In this document: piece by piece, positions 1-30,271 of the stretch
Layout: every line of letters starts with the position of its first letter
Numbering within the stretch: position 1 is the stretch's first letter
Assembly (NCBI GenBank): GCA_047495785.1
Contig: JBLDXI010000033.1
Location: 682,001 to 746,000 of the forward strand
Source: Lepidodermella squamata
Taxonomy: Eukaryota > Animalia > Gastrotricha
Length of the DNA: 64,000 nt
Reading direction: 5' to 3'
Made by a program: the position numbers and the translations under genes
Notes under the pieces: model-generated
Told to the model about the DNA's origin: nothing
Database searches by the model: none
The model's input: the letters and a program-made list of their open reading frames with translations, nothing else

Positions 1-916
1 CGTTACTACTTTCGCAACTTTCATTCGAATCGTTGTTGTTGTTAGCCGCGGCGTGTTTGCCTCGAGTTGGCCGTTGATCGGCTGTTGACGTCGACGGGCT
101 GGTTGAATTTGTACCGGCGGTCGCTGCCCGAGTTGGCGAGCCGCGTTTATCAGCTGCGCCGGGGCGAGATCGAAAGTTAGGCGAGGAACTAGGCGAAAAC
201 AACGAAGAATCGGCCTGATCGCAATTTTCTGAAAAAATAATCGAAAAAATTAGCAAAACTTATAAGTCATCAAGCCAAATCATGTAGAGCATAATTCATC
301 GGATAAATTTTGTTAGAGGTTTTTAATTACCGTAGAAAGGGGTAATTTTCGACAAAATCTAACAATAAGGATGAAAATTCTGAAATTTGAACGTGAAAAC
401 AATATTTACGAAGGTTGTCGAGATCGTCATCGAGCGTACGCCGCCGGGTTTCGACAATTTCTGCCATTCGATGCGCCGCTGCCATTTTCTGCTGAACAAC
501 ATCGCCCAGCTCTTCCATAGCCGCGGCTAGGTTTCGCTTCAACGCGTCGTTTTTCGTAGCCGTGCGTTTCGCATCAGAATCTTCGCCGTCGTCCCATGCG
601 CAACTCATCGACGATTCACTCGTTTCTTTCATGCTCATACTGCTGGTGTTGTTAGACTTGCCATTTTTCGAAGCATTCGCTAGTTGAGTCTTCAAATGCT
701 CGATTTGTTTCAAAAGTCCTGCCGCCAAAAAATTGATAGGATAAAGTTCAAATTTGAACGGTAAAAATTACTTGCAACATCGACGTCCAATTCACGTATT
801 CGACTAAGGTAAGGTTGAAGTTGATTCGGCAAGTTTTGCATACAATCGAGGTAGTCATCCAGGTACGAAGCTGCGCATAGCTTTTGCACAGCTTCCCGAT
901 TGACTAAATTAGCCAT
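1..916 (-). CDS. ING-family (inhibitor of growth, ING1/2-like) chromatin protein, 5' exons; gene runs off the window start
   Basis: N-terminal YLDDYLDCMQNLPNQLQPYLSRIRELD matches the ING N-terminal coiled-coil domain; GT-AG introns; PHD finger not in window. Confidence 0.8.
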
Positions 917-998
917 CTTAAAAACCTAAAAATGCAAGGCGAATTATCAAAACCAATGCATATTTCATCAAAAACTAATAAAAGAACAAAAATTCTCT

Positions 999-2960
<1,962 letters not shown>

Positions 2961-4222
2961 GATGTTCGTTCCCTAATCCGTCAAGCTCTAATTGAAAAAA
3001 AAACAAAACTGTAAAAATTATCCTGGCAATATAGTGATACTAGACAATTTACGGCTGTGTACTCGCCAATAGCGAAAGCGCAACTTACAATCAACGATAA
3101 CAGACGACCAACTAAGGTGCTATCAGCTTTCACAAGCATCTACATAAAATGCAGTCAGCGCTCAGACTAAGTAATTGATGCCAATATTTGTATTAAGACT
3201 ATGAGGCACTAAGAAACACTACATTGAATTATCTTACTGCGAAGTAATGCTGAAACTAGGAGCCATATAAAATAACATGGGAAGTAGAAAAATCGAAAAT
3301 CAGAACTGCGCAATCAGTAAATCTACAGCACACAATTCATACCACACATAATGTAACACAAACACACCGGCTACACAACCGATAGCCGCAAGGACAACCC
3401 CACTGCACTCTCGCCCGTTCGTCGGCCAGCATCTTGGCTTTGAAAGCCACAGGATTTCGCGCGGGAACTCAAATTCAAAACTTAAAATTAAAATTACAGT
3501 TAACGCAAGCATGAATTAAATTAATTGTTAGAAATATGTTAGCATTTTTAAACTTCAAAACCAAAATTTGAAATAATGCGCGTTTGTGTTGCCTGATTTT
3601 TGTTTCGTTTTCCCCACACCTACATGTCTAGTGAGTGTTTGGTGTCTCGTTTCGTCCCTCCTTCATCCTGCATGCTTCAAACCTGTCTCAAAATAATTCT
3701 TTTGTGTAACACAATCAAAAAACTTGTCGACAGCGCCTTGTCTTTTCGTGAAGAGGTAGTGGCAAGAAAATTGCTAGCTTAGGTTTTAGGTCTGAGGTCT
3801 TGATTAGCTATTAGCTCAAGTGAAGTTGAGGAATAGGGAATAGGTATTTTTTCATCGGCTTTTATCGCCCTGGTCCCTGGTATTCCACTTATTGTTGATC
3901 ATGTGACGAGGACCCAGTTATTTTTGCCCAGTTTTCAAATAGCTCTTCCTAGCGGCGGGTTAAGAAAGCGATCAACAACTGTTTTAGATTGGCAATTCCA
4001 TCTTTTCCTTTGGATTGCCGTGAATTAAATATATGACATGTAACTGACAACATCTTAGCAACCATAACCAAACTAACATACTTCATATTTTTAAGATTTA
4101 CGCTGTACATCAAGGTTTATATGGGTGTTTGGTCTTTATATTTTATGGTCTCTCATCTGAAATAGGCAGATTTTGATCAAAATTCTTTTGTTTAGTAGGT
4201 TTTACCATTTTTAGCTCACCCC

Positions 4223-6638
4223 ATGGCAGTAAATTCGTCAAACGGTTGCTCTGCATTAGCCGAGCTTGACTATCTGAAACGTAGCTACAACGGCGTCATA
4301 GACTACGTCAACAATGGCTTGCTTGGCGATATGGACAATCTCGCTCTTTGGCTAATGCGCTTCAGTGAAGATAAGCGGAAACTCCGCGAAGAAAATGCAG
4401 CACTTCGCTCAGAAAACGCATCTCTTCGTTCGGAAAACGCCGAGTTCCGCGAAAGCAATCGCAAGCTTCAGAATCGTATTCATGAATTCACGCAGAAGGA
4501 GTTTGAAACGAAGAATCAAAAGAAGAAAATGGAACGCGAATTTGCTGCTTATATCAAACGTGTTCGGATCGCACTTGGAATCATCGATCAAGAACGCATT
4601 TCAGGTCTTCCTGCTCGTGAACAAGAATGCATACGCGAGTTGAGCAATGTCACCAACAACTTCAACTCCGCAGCCAGCGTTCGCCGAGCGTCGACTAATG
4701 TCGCTGATTTCGACGAGTCACAGGAAGCCTCGTGGATTTACAATGAGGGCGATCGCGATGCTTCTCGCGACATGATTTGCGACGTTAGCACTACATTTGC
4801 TCCGACCAGTTTGAATCAATCCCGAACCAGATCCGGCCGTCCTTACAGCCGAGCCCCTCAGGGTGATAACTACCAGCAACACCCTATTGTTTTCCCGTCT
4901 GAGGATATTCCAATTCAGCTCCCGCCCAAACCGCCACGTTCCCCTAACAATCGCAGACGGTCCCGATCTACCGAAAACAAGCTGTCCCAGCACGTTGATC
5001 TGAATCCGAATCCGAAGGAAGGCCGTCCGTTGAACCTGGGCCGTCGATCCCGGTCTGAAACTCGCGTTCTGGAGCCTCTTGCCTCCCTGACAAGATCACC
5101 GAGCTCAAGCCTGGCGAAACCTCACGTTTTCGTCCAAGACACTGTTGTTAAATCTCACACCTGCGCTACTTGCCAGAGAAAGTCACGATTTGGCCAAGTT
5201 ATGCTTCGTTGCGGCGAATGCGGGTAAGTAAAAATCTTTGTTATGACTATTAAATGATTTCATTATTCCCTGATGTTTTGTTTCTTATCAATCATCATTC
5301 TTTTGCCTTTATCAGTCAAATGGTTCACACTGAATGCCGTAATGATGCGCCTATGCCTTGCTGGGGCAAACGCGTCAACTCACCAGCCGCGATTTCAACG
5401 CCTCGAATGCGCTGGGGCAATCACCAGGACGAGCGAAATCTGACTAGCTATGTCAATGAACTGCCTCCCTTCGTACCGCCTGTCGTCATTCAATGTGTGA
5501 ATGAGATCGAAACTCGAGGCCTTACCGAGTCTGGGCTGTACCGACTCAGTGGCTCTTTGGCTGAAATTCGCGACTTGAAGAAACAAGTCTACCAGGGCAA
5601 GGCTCCGCCTAATTTGTCGCTCATTCGCGATATCAACGTCATCACCGGGTTGTTGAAAGATTTTTTGAATAATTTGCCCGATCCAGTTATTCCTAACGCT
5701 GTTCGTCAGGAATTTGTGAATGCTCTTGGTAATAATTAAATTTAATCGTAACATTAGTTTTTAATCGATTGATTATTTCGTAGATCTTGATGCCAACCAG
5801 CAGACTAGTCGTTTCAAGGACCTTGTTAAGAACATGACCGATGCTCACCATGATACGCTGGTTTACCTTCTTCTGCACCTTCAACGCGTTGCTGCTGCTC
5901 CGGCGACGAATATGCCGGTGAAAAATCTCGCCCGCGTTCTGGCGCCGACCCTCTTCGGGCCTTGCTCCAACCAAAACTCAGTTGCTGCTACTCGAGATGC
6001 CGAACTTATTTCTGCGGTAAGGATTCTCCTTTTGACTTCTTCTAAGCCACATTTCAGCATATAAAGGGAACAAAATAGGGACTCAAATGTGTAACAACTT
6101 TGTCAAATACAATTGAATTATTTACTCAATCTTATATTCTTGGCTATTCGAAGATTCACCAGAAAGGAAAATTATTTTTGATTTGCCTTGGGTTGGATAA
6201 AAATGAATCATTCGGTCGAAAATACAGTGTTTGTCACCAATTTGTCACCAATTCGTACTTTTAAAAATTGTGAATTTCTTGATGCAAAATTTTTGATTTT
6301 TTAATTTTTTAATTTAAAAATAACAGCGTAATTAAACAATTTTTTACTCTTTTTAGGCTCTTGAGATTTTGCTGAGTATTCCTAACGAGTACTGGCTGAA
6401 GCAGTTGCGCCTCGAATCGAAGTCCCTGTACCCTAAAACCCCGACAGGTGCCCGGCCGCCGCTCGCCGAAACCGAAAGCAGCAGTTCAAACGGCGAAGAG
6501 TACACGCGGAACAACTCAACAAACAGCGCAGTTGGCCACACGGTGCGTTCGTTCTTCTCCCGGCCAGAATCGTCGCAACAAACTCGCATGTTTTCATCTG
6601 CAAATCCGTCGAAAAAATCGCGGAAAGAAAACCGATGA
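4223..6638 (+). CDS. RACGAP1: Rac GTPase-activating protein 1 (CYK-4/tumbleweed-like): coiled coil, C1 domain, RhoGAP
   Basis: N-terminal coiled coil; C1 motif HVF..CATC..C.EC..H.EC..C; RhoGAP EIETRGLTESGLYRLSG, LLKDFL, NMPVKNLARVLAPTL; three introns. Confidence 0.85.
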
Positions 6639-6950: not shown

Positions 6951-8342
6951 TTAAATGTGCCCACTCGCACATGTTGTTGGGCAACTGTCGTCTTTTGTCG
7001 AGTCACTTTCGCATCGGCATGAATTTCGTTTTGCGGAGAACGTGCTGAGTCTAGCGACGGTTAATTCGAGTTCCGGGTAGGCCGGTTCATGGCCGTGAGC
7101 TTCGTCCATTCCGATTTCTTCGGCGTCGTTATTCGCTCCGTCGAATGATGGAAGAGTTTTTGGAATGGGCGACGTCATTCGGAGTAGCTTGAAGTACCGC
7201 AGAATGGCGCATATGACCAGGGTGTGTACAAATGACCAGGCGAAAATGACCACAGCTCCGACTATTTGCCAGCCCAAGAACTGAAAAAACACGAAACAAT
7301 AAAATCCTCGGAAAATGTGTTTCCACAAATTGTCAGAAAAATTCGCATTTTCAGGAGAATTAATTTGATTTTGATAGATAAGAGTCAAAATGCTAAAATG
7401 GTGGATTGAGTTGGGTGCCGTTGGATAGCCTGTGCGAAAAGCGGATAGCCCGAGCTTTTTGAAAATATTTTATTTCCTCATGATTCTTGCTTCAATTTAG
7501 GCCCAGATGCATCGTTTTAGCAGCAGATCGATGTCTATTATAGACAACCAGGTTTGCCTTTTCTTGGGCTTTCCAACAGTACCCCACTCAAAGGGTCTTT
7601 ACTGAGCCACCTTCGTGATTTGCCATGCCTGATTCGCCTCATTTTGACAGTTCAAAGTAATTAAACTTACGAGTGCAGATCGAATGTTCCAATGATAAAA
7701 TATTCCAATTCCAGGGTGCAGCAAAGCCGTAGCGATCAGACCGGTTAGTCCTCCACCGAGATGAACTATAGGGCATTTTTTAGATTTTTCCTTAAGATGT
7801 GATTTTCCTATCATACCTCCAACAGCATCAACAGGATCGTCCAGTTTCATCTTGGCAACGAGCCAAGACACGAAAATGTAGACTAGGCCAGCAACGCATC
7901 CGATGGCTACTGAGGCCCAAGTTGTCAAAACATCACACCCAGCACATATCGCCACCTAAATGTATTATTTCTTCAATTTTTAACCTCAAATAAAGTTGGG
8001 AAGAAAACCATACGTTTCCGGCTAAACTGCCGCACAGCGGCGGTAATAGTGGGAATTTCCGCGTTCGCCTTTCGTAAGATAAGTTTAATAACTCAATTTG
8101 CGTGGCGCGGTGAAAAAATTACCAGAATGCAAAAATGGCTACCGAGAGCATTCCACCAGCTCCAGCCAGCCTATTTTTGGAAAATATGAGACATATATCG
8201 AAAAATGGCAATGACAAACATGGTATTAGTCGCGGCGTAACCAATAGCATAAGAATCTCCCATCGCATCAACGTGAAGCTGCGAACCAGCGTTGAAGGCC
8301 ACAAAGCCTGTTGATAGGATTAAACACCCTAGCGCTGCTAGC
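6951..8342 (-). CDS. Ammonium transporter (Amt family), 3' half only; 5' half missing at the element junction
   Basis: GFVAFNAGSQL, AICAGCD, DDPVDAVGVHLGGG (spliced), EEIGMD..HGHEPAY; the upstream intron is cut at 8372. Confidence 0.85.
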
Positions 8343-8394
8343 TGAAAATGTATTAAAAATTCAGATTTGTTCAGTAGTAAGGATGGGAACTTTG

Positions 8395-8560
8395 GATCAG
8401 TAATAGCAGTACGGCGATTTTTACTATAGCCGTTTGGTATAAATATACGCAATTTGCGATCAGTAATGGCAGTACGGCGATTTTTACTATACCCGTTTGG
8501 TATAAATATACGCAATTTGGGGATGAGTAATAGCAGTACGGCGATTTGTACTATAGCCGC
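8395..8560. repeat. Subterminal tandem repeat, 63-64 bp unit x ~2.6 (left end)
   Basis: GAT(C/G)AGTAAT(A/G)GCAGTACGGCGATTT... starts at 8395, 8458 and 8522. Confidence 0.95.
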
Positions 8561-8825
8561 TTCTTGTCAATATACCTTCGTTTTAACCCACTGCTATGAT
8601 TTCACCTAACTAAAATAAACAAATCTTCGTTTTTTCACCTGTTATGAGCTAAACTAATCATTTTTACACTGCTTCTTTAGTGCAGCTGCAATAGAGCCCT
8701 TTTTCATTCACACAAACACTTTTTATTAGTCTTAACGTTTCAAGCAATGAATTTATAGCTGGGATAAGTCTTATCAGTTTTTCTATTCATTTGTTCAGAG
8801 ATTTGTAGCGGCTTGATTGGAGGGG

Positions 8826-9329
8826 TTAACGTCCAGATGAACCGAATCCGTTATCGCCACGGGTCGAATTTGCTGCTAGAGCGTTTTTCAATGGCCCCGT
8901 TACCGTTACTGCAGATTCTAAGCGACCATATTTTAAACACACCAACTGGGTAATACGGTCGCCTATTTTAATCTTGTAAGGTGTTTTGCTGTTGTTTGCA
9001 AGGCAGACTACGATTTTTCCGGTGTAGTCGGCGTCTTTAATTCATGAAAAATACAGATATTCATTAGTAATTTTCATTATTATTTGCTTCTTACCTATTA
9101 CTCCAGCGACCGTATCGATTCCATGGTTGATGCTCATTCCTGATCGACTGAATAGTTGTCCATAATATCCTCGTGGTAAACAGATTTTAATATCAGTTTG
9201 AATCAGTCCCCTGGTTCCAGGTTGCAGTGTCGTCTCTTCTGCTGAATAGATGTCCCAACCCACAGAGCCTTTAGTATGCTTTGTCGGTTCTTTAGCTTTG
9301 TTACTTGTTAGCTCTACCTTCAGCTTCAT
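8826..9329 (-). CDS. dut: dUTPase (trimeric type), 2 exons, intron 9035-9094
   Basis: GWDIYS, SRSG, spliced GVIDADYTG, GDRITQL, RGDNGFGSSG. Confidence 0.93.
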
Positions 9330-9763
9330 ATTTTATAATTTATATTGTTACTGAGGTTCGATTTTTATGTGAGCGGCTACCTCCTTTCAGGCATATTGTT
9401 TTTGTAATTCAATCTTCCTTAAAAATGCATTAGGGCCTTTAGCTCTGTTGACCCCTCAGTGCTGGCTTTAATGCTTTTCATCAAAGATTCTTGGTATTGT
9501 ATACATCCTCCTTAATTGCTGTCGGTAATTCAATAAGAAAACATCATGTCAATAAATCTTATACATCCTCCCTAATTAAACAATGCGATTTTTTACTTAT
9601 CAAAATAAAAAGCAATTAGGATTTTTTACCCTTTACGGTGTAATTACCTTAAACAATTCAAACAAAACATCTCCCTGTTTTTTCCTTTTATGGAAATATC
9701 ACTCAGACTATTTAAGAGAGATGCTTCAAGAATACACTTAGCATATTTCTTGAAGCAAGCTGG

Positions 9764-10528
9764 ATGCATCCTAAAGTCTACCATTTCGGCATAGTCGGCA
9801 ACATTGGGGCGTAAGTCTCATATACTCCACCGAATAGAATTCTATTTAAAGTCTCTTGTTTTAGCGGGAAATCAACCTTAATCGAGGGTCTCACTAATCT
9901 ACCTTCACTCAACCGTAAACTTCAGGGATATACCGCGTGGCCAATTTGCGAGCCTGTTCATCGTTGGGAGTCCTTTACTGATGACGATAAAACTAACATT
10001 TTGAAAGATTACTATCAGATGAAAAATGCGTTCAACTTTCAAATTGTAGCCACGAGTGATATGTGCGGCCTTTATTCAGCCCCTAACCACAAACCTGAAA
10101 TCTACGGGGCGCATACTATCGTTCTGCATGATCGAACGCCCTTCTGTTCTAAAAACGTCTTTATCCCATGTGCGTATGCATCCAAGCGCATAAATTCTAT
10201 CGAATATCACGCTCTCATGAATTTGTATGATAATTTCGAGCCGAATTTTGTAAAAACTGAAGCTATTATTTACTTGCGCTCCTCTCCCCAAATAGCTTGT
10301 CAAAGAGCCGTAGCTAGAGCTCGGGGTTCTGAAATGCTATTATCACTGGATTATTTACGCCTCGTACATGAGTTTCATGAAAAAATGTGTACTGTTGAGA
10401 CTACAAACAAATCCCTACCATGTCCCGTGCTTGTTATCGACACTGATAATTTGAATGCCTCTGAGGTTCTAAAGCAAGCTTCTCAGTATGTTGCCTCTCT
10501 TATCACGCCTGTAATCTCTCAGACTTGA
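9764..10528 (+). CDS. Deoxynucleoside kinase (dNK/TK2 family), 2 exons, intron 9811-9864
   Basis: Spliced P-loop GNIGAGKST, EPVHRW, FNFQ, DRTPF, IYLRSSP, R..AR.RGSE, YLRLVHEFHE. Confidence 0.9.
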
Positions 10529-10538
10529 ATCCTCATTG

Positions 10539-10901
10539 ATGGATCCAACAAGACTTGTGCTCTCGAACAGCCAGATTTTAGACGCTGAATCTTTGCAATG
10601 TCCAATTTGTTTATCTATCCTACTTAATCCTATTCAAACGCGCCCCTGTGGCCATTTATTTTGTACTAAATGTGTTCTCGCTATTTTTCAAAATTCAGCT
10701 CGAACAGTATGTTGCTGTCCACTTTGCCGCGAATCATTAACAGGGAAAGATTTCGTTAAACCCCCTGTAATTTTATCGAACATTATCTCGAATTTGATTT
10801 ACAAATGCCAATATTCTGATAAAGGCTGTCCCATTACTCTAACTTATGACCTCATTTTTGGGCATGAAAAGTTATGCCAATATAAAGAACCCATCCCTTA
10901 A
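10539..10901 (+). CDS. C3HC4 RING finger protein with TRAF/SIAH-like Zn finger (putative E3 ligase)
   Basis: CPIC...CGHLFCTKC...CPLC followed by C....KGC.........HE..C. Confidence 0.88.
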   Translation: MDPTRLVLSNSQILDAESLQCPICLSILLNPIQTRPCGHLFCTKCVLAIFQNSARTVCCCPLCRESLTGKDFVKPPVILSNIISNLIYKCQYSDKGCPITLTYDLIFGHEKLCQYKEPIP

Positions 10902-10943
10902 AGTTTTACATTCTTATTTCATTAGATTTAATTTTCAATAATC

Positions 10944-11465
10944 ATGGCTGAGGCGATAGTAGAATCTGCTAACCAGACAGTCAATCATCACATGTCTAGT
11001 AACTTGGTCATTCAACAGCATCCTCAGGATTCTAATCTCATCTACATAATGACTGATCGCAAAGATAAGAACGATAAGCCTAAAAAACTCGCCTTTAGAC
11101 AAGACGAATTTCTTAGCCAGTTCGTTCCTTATTTTCGACCGCCGAATGATGCTTGGGTTGCTCAGGCTCAACTTGCCCTGCTATCTCACAACACAGGCTT
11201 TAAATTTTCGATGCATGAATGCAAAATTGAAGTCTGTGTCTTTGTGCCATCATTTTCACCGATTCTTATAGATATACGCAGGTTTTATCTGGATGCTAAA
11301 GGTATTTACTTCAAATTTACAGTAATAGCAATCTTTTTATGATTTAACTTTTTAGGAAATAAACAACCCTCAAGACAAGGAGTCTCTCTTGATGCAGCTC
11401 AGTTTCAAGACCTTGCAACTGGGGTGTTAACTGTTGCAGCGATGATTGAAACAGCCAATGAATAA
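10944..11465 (+). CDS. PC4/Sub1-like ssDNA-binding protein, 2 exons, intron 11302-11355
   Basis: Spliced ILIDIRRFYLDAKGNKQPSRQGVSLDAAQFQDL resembles the PC4 core LIDIREY..D..G..KP.RKGISL...Q...L. Confidence 0.8.
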
Positions 11466-11582
11466 GCTAACACAAAACTTGACTAAAATGACTTACTGAA
11501 TATTTATTTCAATCTATCCTTGTAATAAAGTTTTACCTCTTCCCAAATTCGATCAATTTTAAATTTTTAATCTTAGATTGTT

Positions 11583-13747
11583 ATGGATAACTATAGTTTA
11601 CAATACTCATTTATTCGAAGTAATCGCCTGATTCATTCTACAAAATTCAAAATGTTTTCTGTGGAGTACTTCATTCAGCCCGTAACATCCGACTTTGCCT
11701 CAACCTACATCAACAGATATGGCCAATCTTCTAGTTCGCTTGGGCCGATGATTCAATTGTCTGGTGGCGCTGATGAACCTCGACTGGATAATATTCGATC
11801 ATTTGTGCAGAACGTACCAGCCGACCAGGTGGCTAATATTGATTTGGAGACCCGCTTCAATATTCTGGCCAACTTCCTGTTCGATATTGTTGTAAATATC
11901 CATCGTGATTTACCTGTGAATTCCTTCTGCCGGCTAACACTGTACCACCCCGACTTGAAGATGCCTCTTAGCCTACCCTTCATGAAACGCGATCGGTTGC
12001 TGGAAATTTCAATTTTTGATCAACTGAGAAAAATATTACAGAGTAATGAAGAACTCTCATTTGCTGGTCGGTGGACAATTCGTCTCTGTGTCATTGATAA
12101 CCCCAATGCAGATCTAGGTCAAATTGTTGGTGGTTCTCGGGCAGAGCGGGCTATAAACGAAACTTTGGACAAATTTTTTCTTCGCTCCAAATCGATCGTT
12201 AGAATCGGAGCGCGCAAGAATGAAACGAACAATCTTTGCATGGGCAGAGCTCTCATCACTGGAGTGGCTTTGGCTCACATGAAGGCGAATCCTACGGATC
12301 CATCTCTTCAAGCAACCTTCAAATCGATACGTAGTACGCGAACCAATCGTCAATTTCGCGAAGCCACGGCGCTATATCAGAAAGCGGGCTTACCTCTCAA
12401 CCTTCCAGCCTACAATCTAGATGATCATTACTCAGCCCTGTGTTCGGCTATCGATCCTGAACATAATACTTACAGATTCGTAGTATACTCGTACGAATCA
12501 CAGGATGTTATTAGGGAAATCCCAGAATTTGATCATCGCGTAAGCCTTGGGTTGCTTCCTGTTGTTCTACTGGTTTATCGCAACGACGTCTCTCAGCCCA
12601 ACAGTCATCATTTTCATGTCATTGCGAATCTCAACTTTATGAAGGCCACTCTTAGCAATGCACAACGAATATGCCCCACTTGCTTTCAGACGAAAACGAG
12701 TACGGCTGTGCACAGATGCAAGTTGGCATGCTCTTCCTGCCGTAATTTTTACATGAAAAACCTGAATTTCACTTCTTTTATCATTAATATTATTTTAGGT
12801 GTATCAGGGAGCATTTGCCGTGTGATTTCCAACACAGACCAACAAAACTACACGCGGTGTCCGCAATGTCGTGCAGGTCTGATGTTTTTAACCTTTTCAT
12901 TATTATTCAGCTCTTTTTATGTTTTTAGTTTTGTATAGCGAACGTTGTAAGCAAAACCACAAATGTGCTAAAAAGAATCCATGCTTTAAATGCGGGAGGA
13001 AATTTGTACATTTTCTCAAGCATGAGGCTATGTGTCCCGGGCGGCGCTGTCACATTTGTCAGGAGCCTTTGAAAGCCAGCGACGAAGAAAATGGCACACA
13101 CTTCTGCTTCATGACTCCCTTGGTATACTCATTTTTTTCAGTCCAGCTTTTTTCAAAATACTGTGGTTGGTGTATTTTTAGCCCTTGAAACCGGCGAATA
13201 AACTGGAACGTTATCGTAACCTAGTTTTTTGGGACACTGAGACATTTTCGCCATCACTTGCTGATAACAACAATGAGTTCCAAGTATGCCTTATCGTTGC
13301 AAAGGTCGTATGCATACCTCACTGCATCGAAGCGAGGATTCAGCGATGCCATTCTAGTTGTGGACTTCATATTTTTTATGGAAGTCGTCCTCTGGAGGAT
13401 TTCGTAAACTGGGTGCTTCTACCTATGAATTACCAGTCGATTTATTTGGCTCACAACTCAGCCAATTTCGATTCCTTATTATTACTGAAAGAAATTCAAA
13501 CACGATGTTCTAAAGTGAAGATTCTTCAAAGGCAGGGATCTCTACTATGCATTGATTTCAAACAACAAAAAATCAGATTTTTGGATTCATATCTCTTTTT
13601 TCAATGCAGATTAAGGTAGGTTACCTAAGAAACACTAAGAAACTACATTGCTTACAGGTATTTGTTCAACAACAGGGATTTACCAGCAACAATGGGAATC
13701 CCAGACAAGAAAACCTTCTTTCCTTACGTCTTATGCACTAAAGAAAA
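11583..13747 (+). CDS. Protein-primed family B DNA polymerase (Polinton type), N-terminal part through exonuclease; truncated by the fold-back; introns 12742-12798, 12877-12928, 13123-13181, 13616-13675 and a donor at 13748
   Basis: NNLCMGRAL, Cys/His-rich region ending HFCFM, ExoI FWDTET, ExoII AHNSANFDS, RFLDSYLFF..LRDLP.TMG...KTFFPY after splicing. Confidence 0.88.
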
Positions 13748-13781
13748 GTAAGTACATCATCAACTTCTTGAGCTATTGTGA

Positions 13782-15698
13782 TTGAATTTCTTTCAGTAAT
13801 AATAAGGAATCGAAATTGGCTGAGTTGTGAGCCAAATAAATCGACTGGTAATTCATAGGTAGAAGCACCCAGTTTACGAAATCCTCCAGAGGACGACTTC
13901 CATAAAAAATATGAAGTCCACAACTAGAATGGCATCGCTGAATCCTCGCTTCGATGCAGTGAGGTATGCATACGACCTTTGCAACGATAAGGCATACTTG
14001 GAACTCATTGTTGTTATCAGCAAGTGATGGCGAAAATGTCTCAGTGTCCCAAAAAACTAGGTTACGATAACGTTCCAGTTTATTCGCCGGTTTCAAGGGC
14101 TAAAAATACACCAACCACAGTATTTTGAAAAAAGCTGGACTGAAAAAAATGAGTATACCAAGGGAGTCATGAAGCAGAAGTGTGTGCCATTTTCTTCGTC
14201 GCTGGCTTTCAAAGGCTCCTGACAAATGTGACAGCGCCGCCCGGGACACATAGCCTCATGCTTGAGAAAATGTACAAATTTCCTCCCGCATTTAAAGCAT
14301 GGATTCTTTTTAGCACATTTGTGGTTTTGCTTACAACGTTCGCTATACAAAACTAAAAACATAAAAAGAGCTGAATAATAATGAAAAGGTTAAAAACATC
14401 AGACCTGCACGACATTGCGGACACCGCGTGTAGTTTTGTTGGTCTGTGTTGGAAATCACACGGCAAATGCTCCCTGATACACCTAAAATAATATTAATGA
14501 TAAAAGAAGTGAAATTCAGGTTTTTCATGTAAAAATTACGGCAGGAAGAGCATGCCAACTTGCATCTGTGCACAGCCGTACTCGTTTTCGTCTGAAAGCA
14601 AGTGGGGCATATTCGTTGTGCATTGCTAAGAGTGGCCTTCATAAAGTTGAGATTCGCAATGACATGAAAATGATGACTGTTGGGCTGAGAGACGTCGTTG
14701 CGATAAACCAGTAGAACAACAGGAAGCAACCCAAGGCTTACGCGATGATCAAATTCTGGGATTTCCCTAATAACATCCTGTGATTCGTACGAGTATACTA
14801 CGAATCTGTAAGTATTATGTTCAGGATCGATAGCCGAACACAGGGCTGAGTAATGATCATCTAGATTGTAGGCTGGAAGGTTGAGAGGTAAGCCCGCTTT
14901 CTGATATAGCGCCGTGGCTTCGCGAAATTGACGATTGGTTCGCGTACTACGTATCGATTTGAAGGTTGCTTGAAGAGATGGATCCGTAGGATTCGCCTTC
15001 ATGTGAGCCAAAGCCACTCCAGTGATGAGAGCTCTGCCCATGCAAAGATTGTTCGTTTCATTCTTGCGCGCTCCGATTCTAACGATCGATTTGGAGCGAA
15101 GAAAAAATTTGTCCAAAGTTTCGTTTATAGCCCGCTCTGCCCGAGAACCACCAACAATTTGACCTAGATCTGCATTGGGGTTATCAATGACACAGAGACG
15201 AATTGTCCACCGACCAGCAAATGAGAGTTCTTCATTACTCTGTAATATTTTTCTCAGTTGATCAAAAATTGAAATTTCCAGCAACCGATCGCGTTTCATG
15301 AAGGGTAGGCTAAGAGGCATCTTCAAGTCGGGGTGGTACAGTGTTAGCCGGCAGAAGGAATTCACAGGTAAATCACGATGGATATTTACAACAATATCGA
15401 ACAGGAAGTTGGCCAGAATATTGAAGCGGGTCTCCAAATCAATATTAGCCACCTGGTCGGCTGGTACGTTCTGCACAAATGATCGAATATTATCCAGTCG
15501 AGGTTCATCAGCGCCACCAGACAATTGAATCATCGGCCCAAGCGAACTAGAAGATTGGCCATATCTGTTGATGTAGGTTGAGGCAAAGTCGGATGTTACG
15601 GGCTGAATGAAGTACTCCACAGAAAACATTTTGAATTTTGTAGAATGAATCAGGCGATTACTTCGAATAAATGAGTATTGTAAACTATAGTTATCCAT
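13782..15698 (-). pseudogene. Mirror copy of the truncated protein-primed PolB (ends just after ExoII)
   Basis: ORF translations identical to 11583-13499. Confidence 0.88.
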
Positions 15699-15815
15699 AA
15701 CAATCTAAGATTAAAAATTTAAAATTGATCGAATTTGGGAAGAGGTAAAACTTTATTACAAGGATAGATTGAAATAAATATTCAGTAAGTCATTTTAGTC
15801 AAGTTTTGTGTTAGC

Positions 15816-16337
15816 TTATTCATTGGCTGTTTCAATCATCGCTGCAACAGTTAACACCCCAGTTGCAAGGTCTTGAAACTGAGCTGCATCAAGAGAGACT
15901 CCTTGTCTTGAGGGTTGTTTATTTCCTAAAAAGTTAAATCATAAAAAGATTGCTATTACTGTAAATTTGAAGTAAATACCTTTAGCATCCAGATAAAACC
16001 TGCGTATATCTATAAGAATCGGTGAAAATGATGGCACAAAGACACAGACTTCAATTTTGCATTCATGCATCGAAAATTTAAAGCCTGTGTTGTGAGATAG
16101 CAGGGCAAGTTGAGCCTGAGCAACCCAAGCATCATTCGGCGGTCGAAAATAAGGAACGAACTGGCTAAGAAATTCGTCTTGTCTAAAGGCGAGTTTTTTA
16201 GGCTTATCGTTCTTATCTTTGCGATCAGTCATTATGTAGATGAGATTAGAATCCTGAGGATGCTGTTGAATGACCAAGTTACTAGACATGTGATGATTGA
16301 CTGTCTGGTTAGCAGATTCTACTATCGCCTCAGCCAT
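15816..16337 (-). CDS. PC4-like ssDNA-binding protein (mirror copy)
   Basis: Reverse complement of 10944-11465. Confidence 0.8.
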
Positions 16338-16379
16338 GATTATTGAAAATTAAATCTAATGAAATAAGAATGTAAAACT

Positions 16380-16742
16380 TTAAGGGATGGGTTCTTTATA
16401 TTGGCATAACTTTTCATGCCCAAAAATGAGGTCATAAGTTAGAGTAATGGGACAGCCTTTATCAGAATATTGGCATTTGTAAATCAAATTCGAGATAATG
16501 TTCGATAAAATTACAGGGGGTTTAACGAAATCTTTCCCTGTTAATGATTCGCGGCAAAGTGGACAGCAACATACTGTTCGAGCTGAATTTTGAAAAATAG
16601 CGAGAACACATTTAGTACAAAATAAATGGCCACAGGGGCGCGTTTGAATAGGATTAAGTAGGATAGATAAACAAATTGGACATTGCAAAGATTCAGCGTC
16701 TAAAATCTGGCTGTTCGAGAGCACAAGTCTTGTTGGATCCAT
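16380..16742 (-). CDS. C3HC4 RING finger protein (mirror copy)
   Basis: Reverse complement of 10539-10901. Confidence 0.88.
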   Translation of the reverse strand: MDPTRLVLSNSQILDAESLQCPICLSILLNPIQTRPCGHLFCTKCVLAIFQNSARTVCCCPLCRESLTGKDFVKPPVILSNIISNLIYKCQYSDKGCPITLTYDLIFGHEKLCQYKEPIP

Positions 16743-16752
16743 CAATGAGGAT

Positions 16753-17517
16753 TCAAGTCTGAGAGATTACAGGCGTGATAAGAGAGGCAACATACTGAGA
16801 AGCTTGCTTTAGAACCTCAGAGGCATTCAAATTATCAGTGTCGATAACAAGCACGGGACATGGTAGGGATTTGTTTGTAGTCTCAACAGTACACATTTTT
16901 TCATGAAACTCATGTACGAGGCGTAAATAATCCAGTGATAATAGCATTTCAGAACCCCGAGCTCTAGCTACGGCTCTTTGACAAGCTATTTGGGGAGAGG
17001 AGCGCAAGTAAATAATAGCTTCAGTTTTTACAAAATTCGGCTCGAAATTATCATACAAATTCATGAGAGCGTGATATTCGATAGAATTTATGCGCTTGGA
17101 TGCATACGCACATGGGATAAAGACGTTTTTAGAACAGAAGGGCGTTCGATCATGCAGAACGATAGTATGCGCCCCGTAGATTTCAGGTTTGTGGTTAGGG
17201 GCTGAATAAAGGCCGCACATATCACTCGTGGCTACAATTTGAAAGTTGAACGCATTTTTCATCTGATAGTAATCTTTCAAAATGTTAGTTTTATCGTCAT
17301 CAGTAAAGGACTCCCAACGATGAACAGGCTCGCAAATTGGCCACGCGGTATATCCCTGAAGTTTACGGTTGAGTGAAGGTAGATTAGTGAGACCCTCGAT
17401 TAAGGTTGATTTCCCGCTAAAACAAGAGACTTTAAATAGAATTCTATTCGGTGGAGTATATGAGACTTACGCCCCAATGTTGCCGACTATGCCGAAATGG
17501 TAGACTTTAGGATGCAT
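16753..17517 (-). CDS. Deoxynucleoside kinase (mirror copy)
   Basis: Reverse complement of 9764-10528. Confidence 0.9.
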
Positions 17518-17951
17518 CCAGCTTGCTTCAAGAAATATGCTAAGTGTATTCTTGAAGCATCTCTCTTAAATAGTCTGAGTGATATTTCCATAAAAGGAAA
17601 AAACAGGGAGATGTTTTGTTTGAATTGTTTAAGGTAATTACACCGTAAAGGGTAAAAAATCCTAATTGCTTTTTATTTTGATAAGTAAAAAATCGCATTG
17701 TTTAATTAGGGAGGATGTATAAGATTTATTGACATGATGTTTTCTTATTGAATTACCGACAGCAATTAAGGAGGATGTATACAATACCAAGAATCTTTGA
17801 TGAAAAGCATTAAAGCCAGCACTGAGGGGTCAACAGAGCTAAAGGCCCTAATGCATTTTTAAGGAAGATTGAATTACAAAAACAATATGCCTGAAAGGAG
17901 GTAGCCGCTCACATAAAAATCGAACCTCAGTAACAATATAAATTATAAAAT

Positions 17952-18455
17952 ATGAAGCTGAAGGTAGAGCTAACAAGTAACAAAGCTAAAGAACCGACAA
18001 AGCATACTAAAGGCTCTGTGGGTTGGGACATCTATTCAGCAGAAGAGACGACACTGCAACCTGGAACCAGGGGACTGATTCAAACTGATATTAAAATCTG
18101 TTTACCACGAGGATATTATGGACAACTATTCAGTCGATCAGGAATGAGCATCAACCATGGAATCGATACGGTCGCTGGAGTAATAGGTAAGAAGCAAATA
18201 ATAATGAAAATTACTAATGAATATCTGTATTTTTCATGAATTAAAGACGCCGACTACACCGGAAAAATCGTAGTCTGCCTTGCAAACAACAGCAAAACAC
18301 CTTACAAGATTAAAATAGGCGACCGTATTACCCAGTTGGTGTGTTTAAAATATGGTCGCTTAGAATCTGCAGTAACGGTAACGGGGCCATTGAAAAACGC
18401 TCTAGCAGCAAATTCGACCCGTGGCGATAACGGATTCGGTTCATCTGGACGTTAA
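17952..18455 (+). CDS. dut: dUTPase (mirror copy), intron 18187-18246
   Basis: GGA GTA ATA G|gtaag...aag|AC GCC GAC TAC ACC GGA restores motif 3 GVIDADYTG. Confidence 0.93.
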
Positions 18456-18720
18456 CCCCTCCAATCAAGCCGCTACAAATCTCTGAACAAATGAATAGAA
18501 AAACTGATAAGACTTATCCCAGCTATAAATTCATTGCTTGAAACGTTAAGACTAATAAAAAGTGTTTGTGTGAATGAAAAAGGGCTCTATTGCAGCTGCA
18601 CTAAAGAAGCAGTGTAAAAATGATTAGTTTAGCTCATAACAGGTGAAAAAACGAAGATTTGTTTATTTTAGTTAGGTGAAATCATAGCAGTGGGTTAAAA
18701 CGAAGGTATATTGACAAGAA

Positions 18721-18886
18721 GCGGCTATAGTACAAATCGCCGTACTGCTATTACTCATCCCCAAATTGCGTATATTTATACCAAACGGGTATAGTAAAAA
18801 TCGCCGTACTGCCATTACTGATCGCAAATTGCGTATATTTATACCAAACGGCTATAGTAAAAATCGCCGTACTGCTATTACTGATC
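18721..18886. repeat. Subterminal 63-64 bp tandem repeat (right end, inverted copy)
   Basis: Mirror of 8395-8560. Confidence 0.95.
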
Positions 18887-18950
18887 CAAAGTTCCCATCC
18901 TTACTACTCTCATTGACCAAAATCGAAAAATTGACTCACAATTATGTTAG

Positions 18951-19955
18951 GGTTGTTTTGCCGGTCTGCGTTATAGCATTCATACCGAATCCTCAGTGGC
19001 ACTTTTTGGGATCGAGGTCTTTCGCAATCTCCACAGATTCACATACGTAAGCCATTATTACAAGCGACTCCACATTATGACGTCTTTTTCATATCAGGGT
19101 TCAATTCGTCTTATCGAGGAAGCCACTTTTCAACCTGTTAAGGTCAGTTATTCAAGTTAAATTTTGCGCGACAATCGCTAGGTGGTTGGTGCGCTCAAAA
19201 GGATCTTACCTTTAGCTGAAGCTAATTTCTAACTACTTCAATAATGAAATCACTGAAATTCACCAAGAAGCTTGAATCTTAATTACTATTTCAGTCTCAT
19301 TGTGCCATCTATACTTTTGGGCGTATCGGGAGCCGCCATGTTCATCATTCCGCGTAAGCTATGAGATGATTTTTAAAAAGTTTTTAACTCCGCTGTTTTC
19401 TCATGTCATTCTAGCTGATAGCGGCGAAAAGATGGGAGTGTGTTTTGTTGTCCTTCTCACCTTCTTCTTCATCTTCTCGACAGTCATCAGCTCGTTCCCG
19501 CCGAATTCAACAAATATCCCCTATTTGTACTACGTAATTTCCATTAAAATAGCATTTAAATTTATTTTATGATTTCCATTTTTCCTCAGTACTTGCTGTC
19601 GTTATTTGCTCTGACTATTCTCGGCACAGTTGTAGCAGCCTTAATTTTGAATTTCGCCGCCAAGGCCAAGTTAATCGAAGACAAGGAGAAGCGGCTGAAA
19701 GTATTTAAAGTCACAATTTGGGCCAATAACATTTCGCTTTTTATTTACTTATTGGGTGTCAGTATTGCTAACGTTCTCTTCATTCTTGCTATTTGCGAAG
19801 AACTTGTTTCTGAAACCGGAGGATGGGACGATGGGACGGAATTCATAACTGTTCGGAACGAGCAATATATCAGGCGGAAAATTGACGACAAATGTGACAG
19901 TTGCTACGCTTTTGATTCAGAAGGGAACTTGTACAACAATGGGCCATGCAACTAA
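18951..19955 (+). pseudogene. Cys-loop LGIC subunit type A, copy 1; 5' half missing at the element junction
   Basis: PNPQW, M2 SGEKMGVCFVVLLTFF, PPNSTNIP; paralogous to 24775-27239; begins mid-intron at 18909. Confidence 0.85.
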
Positions 19956-20018
19956 TTCTATTAATGTCTAATCTCATAAATGAAATAAACATTACTAATC
20001 ATTTTTTTTCAAAATTAG

Positions 20019-21799
20019 ATGAATATTTATTTGAATTACTTTGTTGTTTTTTGCTGCATCGCGCAAGTTGATTGCGAAATTTCATCTGTCATTCAATTTG
20101 TCGATGGAGCAATCAAGTGCTTATCAATGGAGCCAAACGTCGATCCGGTTAACGAAAATGGCACTGTCAATGTCTCCGTCGATATCGTGCTGATGTCGCT
20201 GAACAGCGTCGACGATCAAGCCAGTAAACTGATCCTGAATGCAAATATTTGGCTGCAATGGGCGCTACCTGAGGGTTACATCAATATCACGCAGTTTATG
20301 GGACTTAACACTTCAATCATAACGGACACTGGCGTGTCAAAATGGAAGCGGCGATTTTTCACTATTTCGAAACCTATGGACAACATGTGGACCCCAGCTA
20401 TAATTCCATTCAACAGCCTTAACTTGAAATGTTAGTCGTCTTTTAATGAAATTTTGTCGCTAAAATAATGTTTTAATTACATTTTAATTTTACGAAATAT
20501 TTTAATTATCATTTTCAGCTTGGCGAGATGCTATGGACAAAACTGCCGTAAATGTCAAAGCTAGTGAAGCATATTGGCCTCTTTACACCAATTTAGAAAT
20601 TTATTGCCAGTTCGTTCTCTCCTATGTAAATCATGAGCAGTAATAATATTCAACCCCTGCTCCTATAGGTTTAAATTGGAAACCTACCCTTTCGATCTCC
20701 AAGTATGATGAATTCATAACTCAAGTTCCGTTTTAAATCTAGTCATTTGCTAGATTTGCATGATTTCCATTGGGACACTGAATCCTACGATTAAGTTGAC
20801 AAAACCTACCGATCAAAGGCCTTGTGCAATGGTAAAATTATCCACAGCTTTATTTTCATTTTCGCATTTATGATAGCATTCATCTTTCGCTTCCAGGGAA
20901 GGGTCAGGGACAATCCACAATGGCGGTATTATGGAATGAGGTTTCACAAGGTTGAGCTAACCAATGAAGTGCAAATTTGGATAGCGTTTGAAAGGCGCAG
21001 CCAGTTTCCTGTCCTAAGTCTCATTTGCCCTACAATTCTGCTCGCAATTTCCGGCCTGGCAATTTTCTTGACTCCGCCCAATTCGGAGGAAAAAATGAAC
21101 ATCGCATGCACTGTGTTGTTGTCATTTTTTGGTATTTTTCTAATAATAATTCGGATTGTTGAGAGAAAAACGCTTTCATTTAGTCATTTTCGACAGCGTT
21201 TCCGACTCTTTACCTGCCATATCGAATCCGGATGGCATGCCGCTTATTTACTGGGTATGTCAAATGGAAAATGTTTAGTAAGGATTCGTAAATTCAAATT
21301 TTCAGTATCTTTTTGCCCTATTTGTGACGACATCAATCGCAACGGCAAGTCCGTAATCGAGGTCATTTCTAATTAAAATTTATCAATTTTCTAGATCTAT
21401 GCGGCTATTTTACTCCGTTACGCTGACCCGGTCGAGAACACTCAAATCAACCCCAAAGGCTCGCCACTGAAGTGTTGCAGAAAACTCCGCATCGCTCCTG
21501 GTCTGGGCAAAAAGCGCCGCTCAAATTCGATAATTGATGCGAGCAATGTCGAGGAAAACAGAGAAATAAATCGAAGGCGGGTTGAAATTGCCAACAAAAT
21601 CGGTATTATCGGCTATACCGTTATGGTCAACCTCATCAGCTTCGTTATTTTCGGTCTCTACTCTGCTAGCAGTGTCGAGAATAAGCCTATTCTTGTTGGC
21701 GAAGGCGCACATAGCGATGGAAATCTAAATCTCAACGGAACTTATAAAATTTATCGAATCAACGGTGAAATTTATTACGATGTTGATTTTTGTCGCTGA
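20019..21799 (+). CDS. Divergent Cys-loop ligand-gated ion channel subunit, type B copy 1
   Basis: Signal peptide, MWTPAI, spliced Cys-loop CQFKLETYPFDLQIC, ERR..F, EEKMNIACTVLLSFF, four TM segments. Confidence 0.88.
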
Positions 21800-21844
21800 C
21801 GCATTTTTCACATGCTAATAGAGAGAAGCTGTAAATAAAATTAT

Positions 21845-23275
21845 AGAAAAAAAAGTGCAGCCGCTAGTTTTCGTGCAGAGAGCCATAGTCATTCGGAGCC
21901 GTTTCAGAGGTCGTTAAACTTTGTTCGAAAAACACATAGGCGCATTAAGCAGTTCATTGTATGTTAGTTGTCGGCAGCTGTTGGCCGTTTTAGCGTTCTG
22001 TGTTTCCCACGACAGGTTGTTGAAGAGCACTGCGCCTCGGTATGCCAGTGTTTTCTGCCCATGCTTAGATCGTAGGCATGGAACGACGAGGGTGTTGTTG
22101 AACACGCTTCGCGTCATTGGTTGGTCTGGGTCAAATTCTTTCCGGACGAACATTTCGCACAGATATTCGGGAGCCTCACCGTTCACGCACCGCCAGACCA
22201 AAGTTGATAGGTGTACGTTGCGCTTTTGGTGCATCGGGAGCCATCGTAACTTCTTGCGCAGCGGTTCGACGTCTGCGTGTTTCGGAGCTTTCATGATAAT
22301 CCTGATTGATTGATCTTGTATCGTTTGCAGTGGTTTCAAGTTCGTGTCAGCTGATTGAGCCATGACATTGTCAGCGTATCCTAGGTAACTCAATACAATG
22401 CCGTTCGCCATCATTTTCAGAGTATTTCTATCCATGTATTTGGAGGCCAGTTTCAGTGCATACAAGCCGCGACGCGCTCGATTTCTAATCGCATTAATTT
22501 GCTCTTTGAAGAGAAGCTTTCGGTCAAGAACAAATCCGAGAATTTCCATTTTTTCAGCTGGTAATAGCACCGCTTCGTTGATGACTATCTTGAGACCTGT
22601 CACGACTTCTTCGCCGAGTATCATAAGCTGAGACTTCTTTGCATTAACCATCAGGCTGTTGTTGCCCAGCCATTTACTGACCTTATCGATATCAGCTTGT
22701 AACTTGTTTAGGGCGACTGATAGATCGCGGTCGGCACAGTAGATGGTCGTATCATCCGCGTATAGAATGATCGCTGAGTGCAGTGCAACCGCGGCGATGT
22801 CGTTCACGTAGATGGTAAACAAAAGCGGGCCAATGACGCTACCTTGTGGGACACCATACGCTATTCTGTTGCTGGACGAAATAGAGCCATTCAATTTTGT
22901 GATTTGATATCTTTCAGAAAGAAAACTTCCCATTAGCTTCACAGCGTGATCATCAAAACCAGCGTTTCTCAGTGTCGCATGAGTGATATCGCCTGAATCC
23001 AAACTGACTAGGCGAAAAGAAGCGTGTTATCTGTAGATGAGACTTGATCTGTTCGACAATGACCCTTTCAAAGATTCGAAGAATCGGTGAGAGGATCGAT
23101 ACAGGCCGGTAGTTGCTGACTTCGTTAAAAGGGCCGCTTTTGTGTAAAGGAGTAACAACCGCCGTTTTCCACACACGTGGAATATTTCCTTCGAATAAAA
23201 TCCTGTTAAATAATGACACGAGATGCCAAGAGATAGCTCGTTTCGATAATTTAAGCACACATTCCGGAATTTTCC
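21845..23275 (-). mobile_element. 5'-truncated, internally deleted non-LTR retrotransposon (CR1/L2/Jockey-group RT)
   Basis: WKTAVVTPLHK, NYRPVSIL, QFGFR, GVPQGSVIGPLLF, YADD; the D..KAFD motif segment is missing, with a frameshift near 22975. Confidence 0.88.
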
Positions 23276-23323
23276 ATACTGCACTCAGCAGAGAGCGAAG
23301 TACCGCTAGGGATATGGTAGGGA

Positions 23324-23732
23324 CATAGAGAAAAAAATGACCAGAGTAAGCACTCAAGCTAAAATATTGACCTCCATTATTATAGAAGTGCGTTCTCAAA
23401 ACGGATATCTCCGTTTTCTACCAAATTTTGCATGCCTATAGAACGCGAGCTGCTCTTTCACGTGGTATAAGATTTGAGGTGGGCAATTGCTGCTCAGTAT
23501 TGATATCATCAAAATAAGTAAAACCATAGTGAAAACGAGGTTTTTGTATCGTAACAACGGTTGGGTTGCCCATCTCAAATCTTATACCACGTGAAAGAGC
23601 GGCTCGCGTTCTATAGGCATGCAAAATTTGGTAGAAAACGGAGATATCCGTTTTGAGAAAGTCAACTTTGAATTAAAATGAGGATTTAGAAATTTTAGCT
23701 TGAGTGCTTTCTCTGGTCATTTTTTCTCTATG
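23324..23732. mobile_element. Fold-back MITE (hAT- or P-like), CATAGAG...CTCTATG termini, 8-bp TSD GGTAGGGA
   Basis: TSD at 23316-23323 and 23733-23740; ~42-bp outer and ~90-bp inner inverted repeats. Confidence 0.9.
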
Positions 23733-24329
23733 GGTAGGGATCATCCCTACCAGTTCCATCAATCCGTACGGTGAGCTTATTCACAGATCAAAGGGGGCGC
23801 CTTATGTCAATTTTTCCAGTCCCTACCAGTTCCGCAGTCCTACTTCGCTCTATGGCACTACTCAGTCGGACTTTTTCCGAAATGCGAGGTCTTCCGCGAC
23901 GTGAACTACATCGTAGCTTGTTTTATTCAGTTGATCAAGTCGGGTTTAGGTTTGTTTGCAAGATTGTCCGCCGTTAAAACTTTATCAGACTATAAACTTT
24001 CCCTATATGATTCTCAATGTTGAAGTACTGACGATGACACAGGCACCGATTGAGCCTTTTGTACAGCGATCGGCTTCGGCTTCGGTGATCTTCAGCGCTA
24101 GCTAACCGCAGCTAGAAATACGGATCATAATAGCTTTCCGCGCTTTTTTCAGCATTGCCTAGTGACGAGCAAGGCAGCGTGGCATCGTTCACCACTAAGA
24201 AATCACGTGTCGGCAAGCTGCCTGTAGTTGGAGGTTGGAGGAGACTGCAGAAAGGGCAGTCTGATTCTCGCAGCGACGTGATGTAGCCTGTGGCTGAGCC
24301 GATTCCAGCAATTTTTTTGCCTCAAAGAG

Positions 24330-24700
24330 GGGACTTCGCATTCATATCATCCACGAAATCTCAGTGGCATTTCCAAGCTCCTATTATATATGTCGTAGTT
24401 TCGTCGCACAGGTTTTTTTTAGGGCAATGCGGCAGTAGGGGGCATATGAAAAGAGTTATTATTTATATTTGTTATTCAAGTATGAATCAGCTACACAAAT
24501 CGCAATTTGCCGCAGAATTGATTTCGTCAACGATGTTGAAATTATTGCCTACGGTTGCGCTTGTTTGGCTGGTTGTTATTGGCTTTTACGTATCTTATAA
24601 CTCGAAGCTGATTCCGACGCCGACAGGAATTGACGATGGAATATTCACGATCAACGGAACGCAATATCACCCGCCAAATTACAAATTCTGGCAGTGTTGA
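24330..24700 (+). pseudogene. Relic 3' end (M4 plus tail) of another LGIC-like paralog
   Basis: Hydrophobic helix then DDGIFTINGTQY resembles the type B tail; a second decayed copy at 29790-30197. Confidence 0.5.
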
Positions 24701-24774
24701 CGCGGAAATTAAAGAAAAAAGAGAATAGAAACATGACTTCAGCTTTCAGCTTCGTTATTTTTCCAAAAACTAAC

Positions 24775-27239: not shown

Positions 27240-27431
27240 TGAAAAAACTCATAGTTTTAGTAAAAATGACTGGGACTACTCCATAACAGTCAAAGATAAC
27301 GATAGAGACCTAAACAGCCGAAACCTTTCGATTGTTCTCGTTGCGCAACAATCGAAAGGTTTCGCTGTTCTAAAGACACTAATCTCATATAATTGTAATG
27401 AAAATGGTTAATAGATTTTTTTCAAAATTAG

Positions 27432-29176: not shown

Positions 29177-29489
29177 CATTTGACACATTTCTTATGTTGA
29201 GAGAAAACTTCTGAATAAAAACTGTTCATCACCCTATACCTATGCCGAATTGATATCCTGAGTCCTTGGATCCACGCTGTCAGTAGTCAGGAGGTTCGAA
29301 AGTTCGCGCCGACTGAAATCGTTTCGGGACAAGGTTTCGGGTAATTTCTACCGTTGCTCGTCATTTTGGATCATCGAATTTTCGCGTATTTGGGTCATCT
29401 TCTATCGTCTGCCGCCGAATTCGGTTACATCGCTATGTGTCATCTAAGTTCCATCAACTCCTAGCTCGTCGTTGAAAATACCTGGATAG

Positions 29490-30197: not shown

Positions 30198-30271
30198 TAA
30201 ACAATTAACAAAAGGATAAAGAAACCGATTTTAGCTTTCTCATTTTCGTTGGTTTTCTTGAAACTAGCAAA

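Follow-up and report, generated by a model that had tools for sequence, protein, structure and literature searches.

A palindromic Polinton end in a gastrotrich contig

We analyzed a 64,000-nt stretch of DNA from the gastrotrich Lepidodermella squamata (assembly GCA_047495785.1, contig JBLDXI010000033.1, forward-strand positions 682,001 to 746,000; hereafter the window, with positions counted from its first base), in which one end of a Polinton/Maverick element is present twice, as a palindrome. The left arm (8373–13499, plus strand) is the exact reverse complement of the right arm (13782–18908, minus strand), which carries mirror copies of all arm genes. Self-BLAST and base-by-base comparison gave 0 mismatches over 5127 nt, confirming the identity of the arms described in an earlier interpretation made without database searches (the sequence-only reading); the alignment runs 7 nt further with 2 mismatches. 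Between the arms lies a single-copy spacer of 282 nt (13500–13781, plus strand), which comprises the end of exon 4, intron 4, exon 5, and the start of intron 5 of the gene that encodes protein-primed DNA polymerase B (pPolB). That the spacer simply continues the polymerase gene, as had been proposed, is borne out by a Pfam DNA_pol_B_2 match, by the spacer sequence, and by RNA contigs. The symmetry stops at the (AGT)2 ends, and the first bases outside them do not pair; the claim that it ends exactly at the element termini thus stands. The 64-kb window contains no further piece of the element and no further copy of its terminal motif.

With one genome end present twice, complementary arms, and the core genes lost, the palindrome shows the features of a copy-back genome, and the sequence-only reading had favored a defective molecule of this kind. 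As detailed below, the genome itself probably contains no such palindrome.

Gene content of the element end

The arm is identified as the end of a Polinton/Maverick by its genes for a dUTPase, a deoxynucleoside kinase (dNK), a RING-finger protein, and the 5′ part of pPolB. Its terminus is formed by (AGT)2 (8373–8378, plus strand; mirrored as (ACT)2 at 18903–18908), one of the two end motifs, (AGT)2 and (AG)3, by which Polintons are recognized and a known end motif of Mavericks (PMC8097293). Three 63-nt direct repeats follow subterminally (8388–8577, plus strand). The dUTPase gene (8826–9329, minus strand) has one intron (9035–9094) and matches Pfam PF00692 on both exons; an RNA joint and a poly(T) end show that it is transcribed and polyadenylated near 8561. 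The dNK gene (9790–10528, plus strand, start approximate; PF01712, E 1e-21) has an intron at 9811–9864 and is followed by the RING-finger gene (10536–10901, plus strand; PF00097, E 4e-7). A small two-exon gene (10944–11467, plus strand), whose intron at about 11300–11353 is defined by an RNA joint, possibly encodes a PC4-like single-stranded DNA-binding protein. This label, suggested by a motif, is a lead only: the Pfam PC4 profile reaches an E of 0.33 on exon 2, below the cut-off, and the other profile and protein searches made with this gene gave no match.

The pPolB part (11583–13788, plus strand, with introns) covers the N-terminal region, a Cys-rich part, and the start of the exonuclease. 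The gene is truncated within intron 5, and the polymerase core is absent from the window, which thus holds only the 5′ part of this Polinton hallmark gene. Positions 13182–13616 match PF03175 (DNA_pol_B_2) at the cut-off (25.8 bits). The 451-aa open reading frame (ORF) at 11583 has no Pfam match but 75 relatives in a full HMMER search. Because PF03175 lies further downstream in 19 of the 24 relatives scanned, mostly long ones, we assign this ORF to a protein-primed polymerase, as its N-terminal region. Polintons of 13–25 kb also carry genes for a retroviral-type integrase, a packaging ATPase, a protease, and capsid proteins; none of these lies within the 5.4 kb of the element that are present. 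Seven spliced introns of 52–60 nt are spread across four element genes (8826–13747), and an eighth lies at the turn of the palindrome.

Word-based protein searches with two pPolB ORFs gave no match, none of 10 window ORFs was present in the exact-match protein collection, and the pPolB exonuclease exon had no PDB sequence match. The Atlas matches were unnamed eukaryotic clusters of low recognition value and serve as a lead only. The dNK search returned no related viral locus, and neither viral nor metagenome contigs contained the terminus patterns (0 matches).

The parent family in public sequencing runs

We compared positions 8000–13830 with four listed public runs (X1 to X4), all in the form of Logan contigs, which represent simplified graphs from which rare paths are lost (PMC12424806). 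Three of the runs, from three studies, contain part of the stretch (105 aligned records in X1, 56 in X2, 8 in X3, and 0 in X4, the last figure carrying no weight as evidence); placements refer to 24 of 186 aligned pieces and 13 of 18 loose contig ends. X1 contigs lie over the left arm at depths of 1835–2186. Over the element as a whole, X1 depth is 1720–2186 compared with 52 for one listed host-flank contig, a 33- to 42-fold difference that is not a copy number and is based on depth values with up to 5% encoding error. The 8 listed X1 pieces over the element contain 0 other letters, and additional flanks adjoin the terminus. None of the runs containing the stretch is recorded as RNA; X2 behaves as such, with introns spliced out of the genes for dUTPase, dNK, and pPolB and of the small two-exon gene. 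Two of these splices, including the dNK joint, recur in X3. RNA contigs lack four pPolB introns, and a 4731-nt X2 contig follows pPolB from 11682 and departs from the window sequence at 13747, at the donor site of intron 5. These data show a real, uniform, and expressed Polinton family whose pPolB gene normally continues past the turn. The family is also young and apparently active.

Polintons carry terminal inverted repeats (TIRs) of about 100–1500 bp between two different ends, whereas the window copy carries one end in duplicate. Loose contig ends lie in the terminus at 8449 (X1 and X3) and 8512 (X2). Since contigs of three runs leave the terminus at these points, we infer that the normal TIR of the family is short, ending within the 63-nt repeats at about 77–140 nt and not at 5 kb. 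Long TIRs and internally deleted copies do occur in DNA transposons, and a family with ordinary 5-kb TIRs, of which the window would hold an internally deleted copy, could in principle produce the same arrangement. The early divergence of the contigs makes this extremely unlikely, as do the depth beyond 8585, which is that of one contig and not doubled, the normal continuation of pPolB in both DNA and RNA, and the missing target-site duplication (TSD) described below.

Several further observations concern the X1 and X2 contigs. X1 depth drops steadily from the terminus toward the interior, from 2186 to 1720 over 5 kb (8493–13788; about 100 per kb; Spearman −0.96, n = 7). GC bias is not supported as its source (rho 0.18, n = 7); the gradient could stem from truncated copies, from end-derived molecules, or from replication from the ends. 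X1 contigs break at six places along the arm (9862–9887, 10241–10270, 10662–10685, 11451–11474, 11870–11921, and 13433–13463), which repeats in the window do not explain. We rejected these breaks as further fold-back junctions (microhomology of 0–1 nt, compared with 7 nt in the control); they are perhaps variant copies. Another X1 contig, with a loose end at 8405, shares about 33 nt of the terminus (8373–8405) and then differs, possibly representing a non-autonomous relative or a second subfamily. In X2, one RNA contig has an opposite-strand joint at 11579–11670, near the pPolB transcript's 5′ end, which is likely a library fold-back.

The turn point

The sequence-only reading had placed the turn in pPolB intron 5, between 13781 and 13782. 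Its location in intron 5 agrees with the RNA, which leaves the window at the intron 5 donor, and the position itself can now be refined. A 510-nt contig (record 8) of the DNA run X1 runs from 13463 past 13499 to 13788 and continues with 184 nt unlike the window. The native strand therefore extends to 13788 and includes the first 7 nt of the right arm, which places the switch within 13782–13788. This 7-nt segment pairs perfectly with 13493–13499, at the core of a longer putative self-priming site in which 12 of 14 nt of the 5′ side (13493–13506, plus strand) are complementary to the 3′ side (13775–13788, plus strand, native to its last base), leaving a loop of 268 nt. Among 4997 possible 3′ ends between 8373 and 13788, 163 have a perfect 7-nt partner at most 400 nt away, and only the turn site reaches 12 of 14. 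Judged by this pairing, the strand folded back by self-priming, at the most favorable of these sites. A native intron 5 ending at the AG at 13796, which would give a 15-nt microhomology, was ruled out, as the native strand departs at 13788.

Record 8 by itself explains the last bin's depth (1309.5), so that none of the aligned X1 contigs crosses the junction; no run has a joint at this place, and the junction pattern had 0 matches in metagenome contigs. The comparison of arm and spacer depth suggested in the sequence-only reading, when made on X1, revealed no step: the spacer lies at 1720, and six pieces of the arm predict 1727 ± 47. A class of palindromic copies present at host depth should lower the spacer depth by 34–67, and one at twice that depth by 134. 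An abundant palindromic species in X1 is therefore disfavored, while one copy remains compatible with the depth.

Flanks and target site

Polintons generate a TSD of 5–8 bp (10.1101/2023.08.22.554363). None is present around the window copy, where TTGTTC on the left faces CTCATT on the right. On its left side, the palindrome adjoins the 3′ half of a host ammonium transporter (Amt) gene (6951–8372, minus strand; PF00909), broken in an intron; the Pfam match spans only positions 191–381 of 399, and tblastn detected no second Amt piece, and hence no 5′ half, in the window. On its right side lies the 3′ half of a Cys-loop channel-like gene (18909–19955, plus strand), broken in an exon and delimited by paralog alignments and tblastn. 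This gene is the first unit of a tandem array whose other members have 5′ exons that it lacks, and its 5′ half is likewise absent from the window by the same two approaches. The channel assignment draws on Pfam Neur_chan_LBD, found on the paralog at 30272. Because a TSD is missing and the two half-genes belong to different host genes, the two ends of the palindrome derive from two insertion sites, and this weighs most heavily against a single integrated defective genome. The lack of a TSD speaks against one single insertion and not against the assignment to the Polinton family. Neither the lack of a TSD nor the pair of half-genes had been reported in the sequence-only reading, whose account of the element was incomplete in this respect. 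At the left boundary, an X1 contig with a loose end at 8346 (8342–8372) has the same Amt intron without the element, with 18 of 26 nt agreeing on visual comparison; this version is either a paralog or a diverged allele.

Flanks of this kind raise the prospect of a chromosomal rearrangement, in which a break in one copy was repaired by fold-back priming and the inverted copy was resolved by homologous recombination into the matching end of a copy at another locus, or, in a variant, two copies were fused at the microhomology; either way, both 5′ gene halves would be deleted or displaced. One known pathway would then cover the junction, the missing TSD, and the two half-genes. In yeast, foldback inversions are reported to be stabilized by homology-mediated secondary rearrangements at repeats (PMC7467729), and a host locus of Caenorhabditis elegans has been described as rearranged by Polinton copies (10.1101/2024.01.15.575659). 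However, the loop of 268 nt far exceeds the medians of 5–35 nt given for yeast (PMC7467729), the window contains neither the reciprocal product nor the 5′ halves, and the junction is not among the run contigs. A perfect 5.1-kb palindrome is, moreover, expected to be unstable in a chromosome. We therefore regard such a rearrangement as quite improbable.

Origin of the palindrome

We consider the palindrome to be probably a fold-back chimera combined with an assembly misjoin through repeats. A strand-displacing polymerase, likely phi29 during whole-genome amplification, would fold the displaced Polinton strand over onto its own sequence at a short inverted repeat lying at a distance of 282 nt, giving a hairpin of one element end. 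The assembler would then use this hairpin to link two insertion sites through the identical 5-kb ends, and a chimera arising at a hotspot would recur often enough, in a family 33–42 times deeper than the host flank, to mimic a true path. Amplification of the library, recurrence at the hotspot, and an ordinary full element next to each flank are presumed here. As the arms are identical to a deep and uniform family, the flanks would be interchangeable for the assembler.

The dimensions of the turn agree with inverted chimeras from multiple displacement amplification (MDA), which are recognized by overlaps of 5–8 nt and distances near 250–300 nt; the values here are 7 nt and 282 nt. For such chimeras, an overlap peak at 7 nt and a distance peak at 250–300 nt are reported, with overlaps of 12–13 nt the most prone (PMC9984789). 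MDA palindromes are said to favor misassembly (PMC13265396), and fold-back reads are described at about 0.6% even in unamplified nanopore DNA (PMC12870357).

Several points weigh against this explanation. The run evidence consists of Logan contigs, and the library types, of the assembly and of the runs alike, are not on record. Since Logan contigs drop rare paths, a one-copy junction could be lost from them, and its absence is weak evidence; the depth test, with its expected drop of 34–67, is likewise compatible with one copy. A second error, the misjoin, is needed, as one MDA chimera by itself would also duplicate the flank in mirror image. The element's own pPolB, which is of the same strand-displacing family, would be expected to leave an identical junction, and the inward fall of X1 depth fits end-only molecules or truncated copies.

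The strongest rival view is that the palindrome is a natural snap-back defective genome, formed when the Polinton's own pPolB, in the course of protein-primed strand-displacement replication, switched template at 13493–13506/13775–13788 and returned to the same end. The product would be a 10.5-kb molecule, free or integrated, with two origins and no polymerase core, dependent on helper copies; an assembly misjoin through the 5-kb arm, or a later recombination event involving a further copy, would account for its mismatched flanks. Both ends of the palindrome are exact element termini, the junction chemistry fits, helpers exist in the form of a young, deep family with a long spliced pPolB RNA, and the depth gradient is a hint in the same direction. 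As a precedent, subgenomic molecules of 1–8 kb, derived mainly from one end and arising in vivo by template switching, are reported to accumulate in phi29 (PMC4974454, citing Murthy 1998). On the other side, the missing TSD and the two half-genes require an extra event, the junction is not in the X1, X2, or X3 contigs, and the depth shows no step, so that such a molecule is not abundant in X1. Nothing in the six contig breaks, which lack fold-back microhomology, points to a family of these molecules, and no report of snap-back Polinton genomes was found among the literature matches listed. We consider this origin unlikely, if somewhat less so than the chromosomal one. The broader proposal that an active, intron-bearing animal Polinton makes two-origin 10.5-kb palindromes that parasitize intact copies, its own polymerase turning at a hidden 14-nt inverted repeat in intron 5, is doubtful.

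The template switch put forward in the sequence-only reading thus survives in part. Its displaced-strand chemistry agrees with the 7-nt perfect pairing and the unique 12-of-14 repeat, whereas its in vivo outcome, an integrated defective genome, finds no support given the missing TSD, the two-gene flanks, the values at the MDA peaks, and, more weakly, the absence of the junction from the contigs of X1 to X3. Better supported is the alternative which that reading had itself named, a phi29 chimera together with an assembly path through repeats.

Genomic context in the window

The host genes of the window (ING, RecQ5, RacGAP, Amt, and Cys-loop channels) fit an animal with a compact, short-intron genome. 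The ING, RecQ5, and RacGAP-like genes lie at 327–6100, and among the 120 RecQ5 matches listed, identity does not exceed 63%. Divergent Cys-loop ligand-gated channel-like genes, 72–84% similar in DNA sequence, form tandem arrays at 18909–35900 and 38000–61100; two types alternate on the plus strand, and more copies lie on the minus strand. One array contains a reverse-transcriptase remnant (21914–23399, minus strand; Pfam RVT_1). A weak hint of GIY-YIG (E 0.057) makes it possibly Penelope-like, and next to it lies an imperfect palindrome of 409 nt (23324–23732; 79%). A multidomain gene region with PAN, LamG, F5-8, and SUEL-lectin domains spans 51091–57119.

Implications

If the palindrome is an artefact, it illustrates clearly how a young multi-copy element, through amplification fold-backs, can convincingly mimic a "defective virus" and falsely join two loci, and the contig across 8373–18908 should not be trusted. 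If it is real, it would provide direct evidence that a Polinton replicates in an animal by strand displacement from protein-primed ends, a model that is mostly homology-based; a snap-back origin in particular would make it the first sequence trace of free replication of the adenovirus/phi29 type by an animal Polinton. The parent family is real in either case, being uniform, deep, transcribed, and equipped with nucleotide-metabolism cargo. It stands out for the host-type short spliced introns in its polymerase gene, which is intronless in intact vertebrate Mavericks.

Comparison with known systems

The element resembles described Polintons and Mavericks (10.1101/2023.08.22.554363; PMC8097293) in its (AGT)2 motif, a pPolB with a long N-terminus, the inferred short TIR, its presence at many sites, and its animal host. 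It differs in that the window holds one end twice without a TSD and in that its genes, among them the dUTPase, dNK, and RING-finger cargo, contain spliced introns of 52–60 nt. Intact vertebrate Mavericks are described as intronless (PMC8097293), and dinoflagellate Mavericks are reported to carry introners (PMC11957031).

Among rearrangements with a similar outline, the Polinton-linked inversion at the C. elegans eri-6/7 locus (10.1101/2024.01.15.575659) likewise has host genes split at a junction that carries Polinton copies; as reported, it involves TIR remnants in many strains and is confirmed by reads, whereas the present case is a perfect two-ended palindrome in an assembled contig. Yeast foldback inversions (PMC7467729) share the hairpin-primed inverted duplication that ends in a repeat common to another locus, with reported median loops of 5–35 nt in place of 268 nt. 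Subgenomic phi29 DNA (PMC4974454) is similar as a one-end molecule of a protein-primed linear replicon, in its 1–8-kb scale, and in its origin by template switching. Those molecules, however, are described as free phage DNA that accumulates, whereas the palindrome is one copy in a host contig, undetected in the contigs of three runs. With respect to inverted MDA chimeras (PMC9984789), a lone chimera would mirror its own flank, whereas the symmetry in the window stops at the element ends; what the two have in common is an intramolecular fold-back with an overlap of 7 nt, a distance of 282 nt, and a 12-of-14 pairing.

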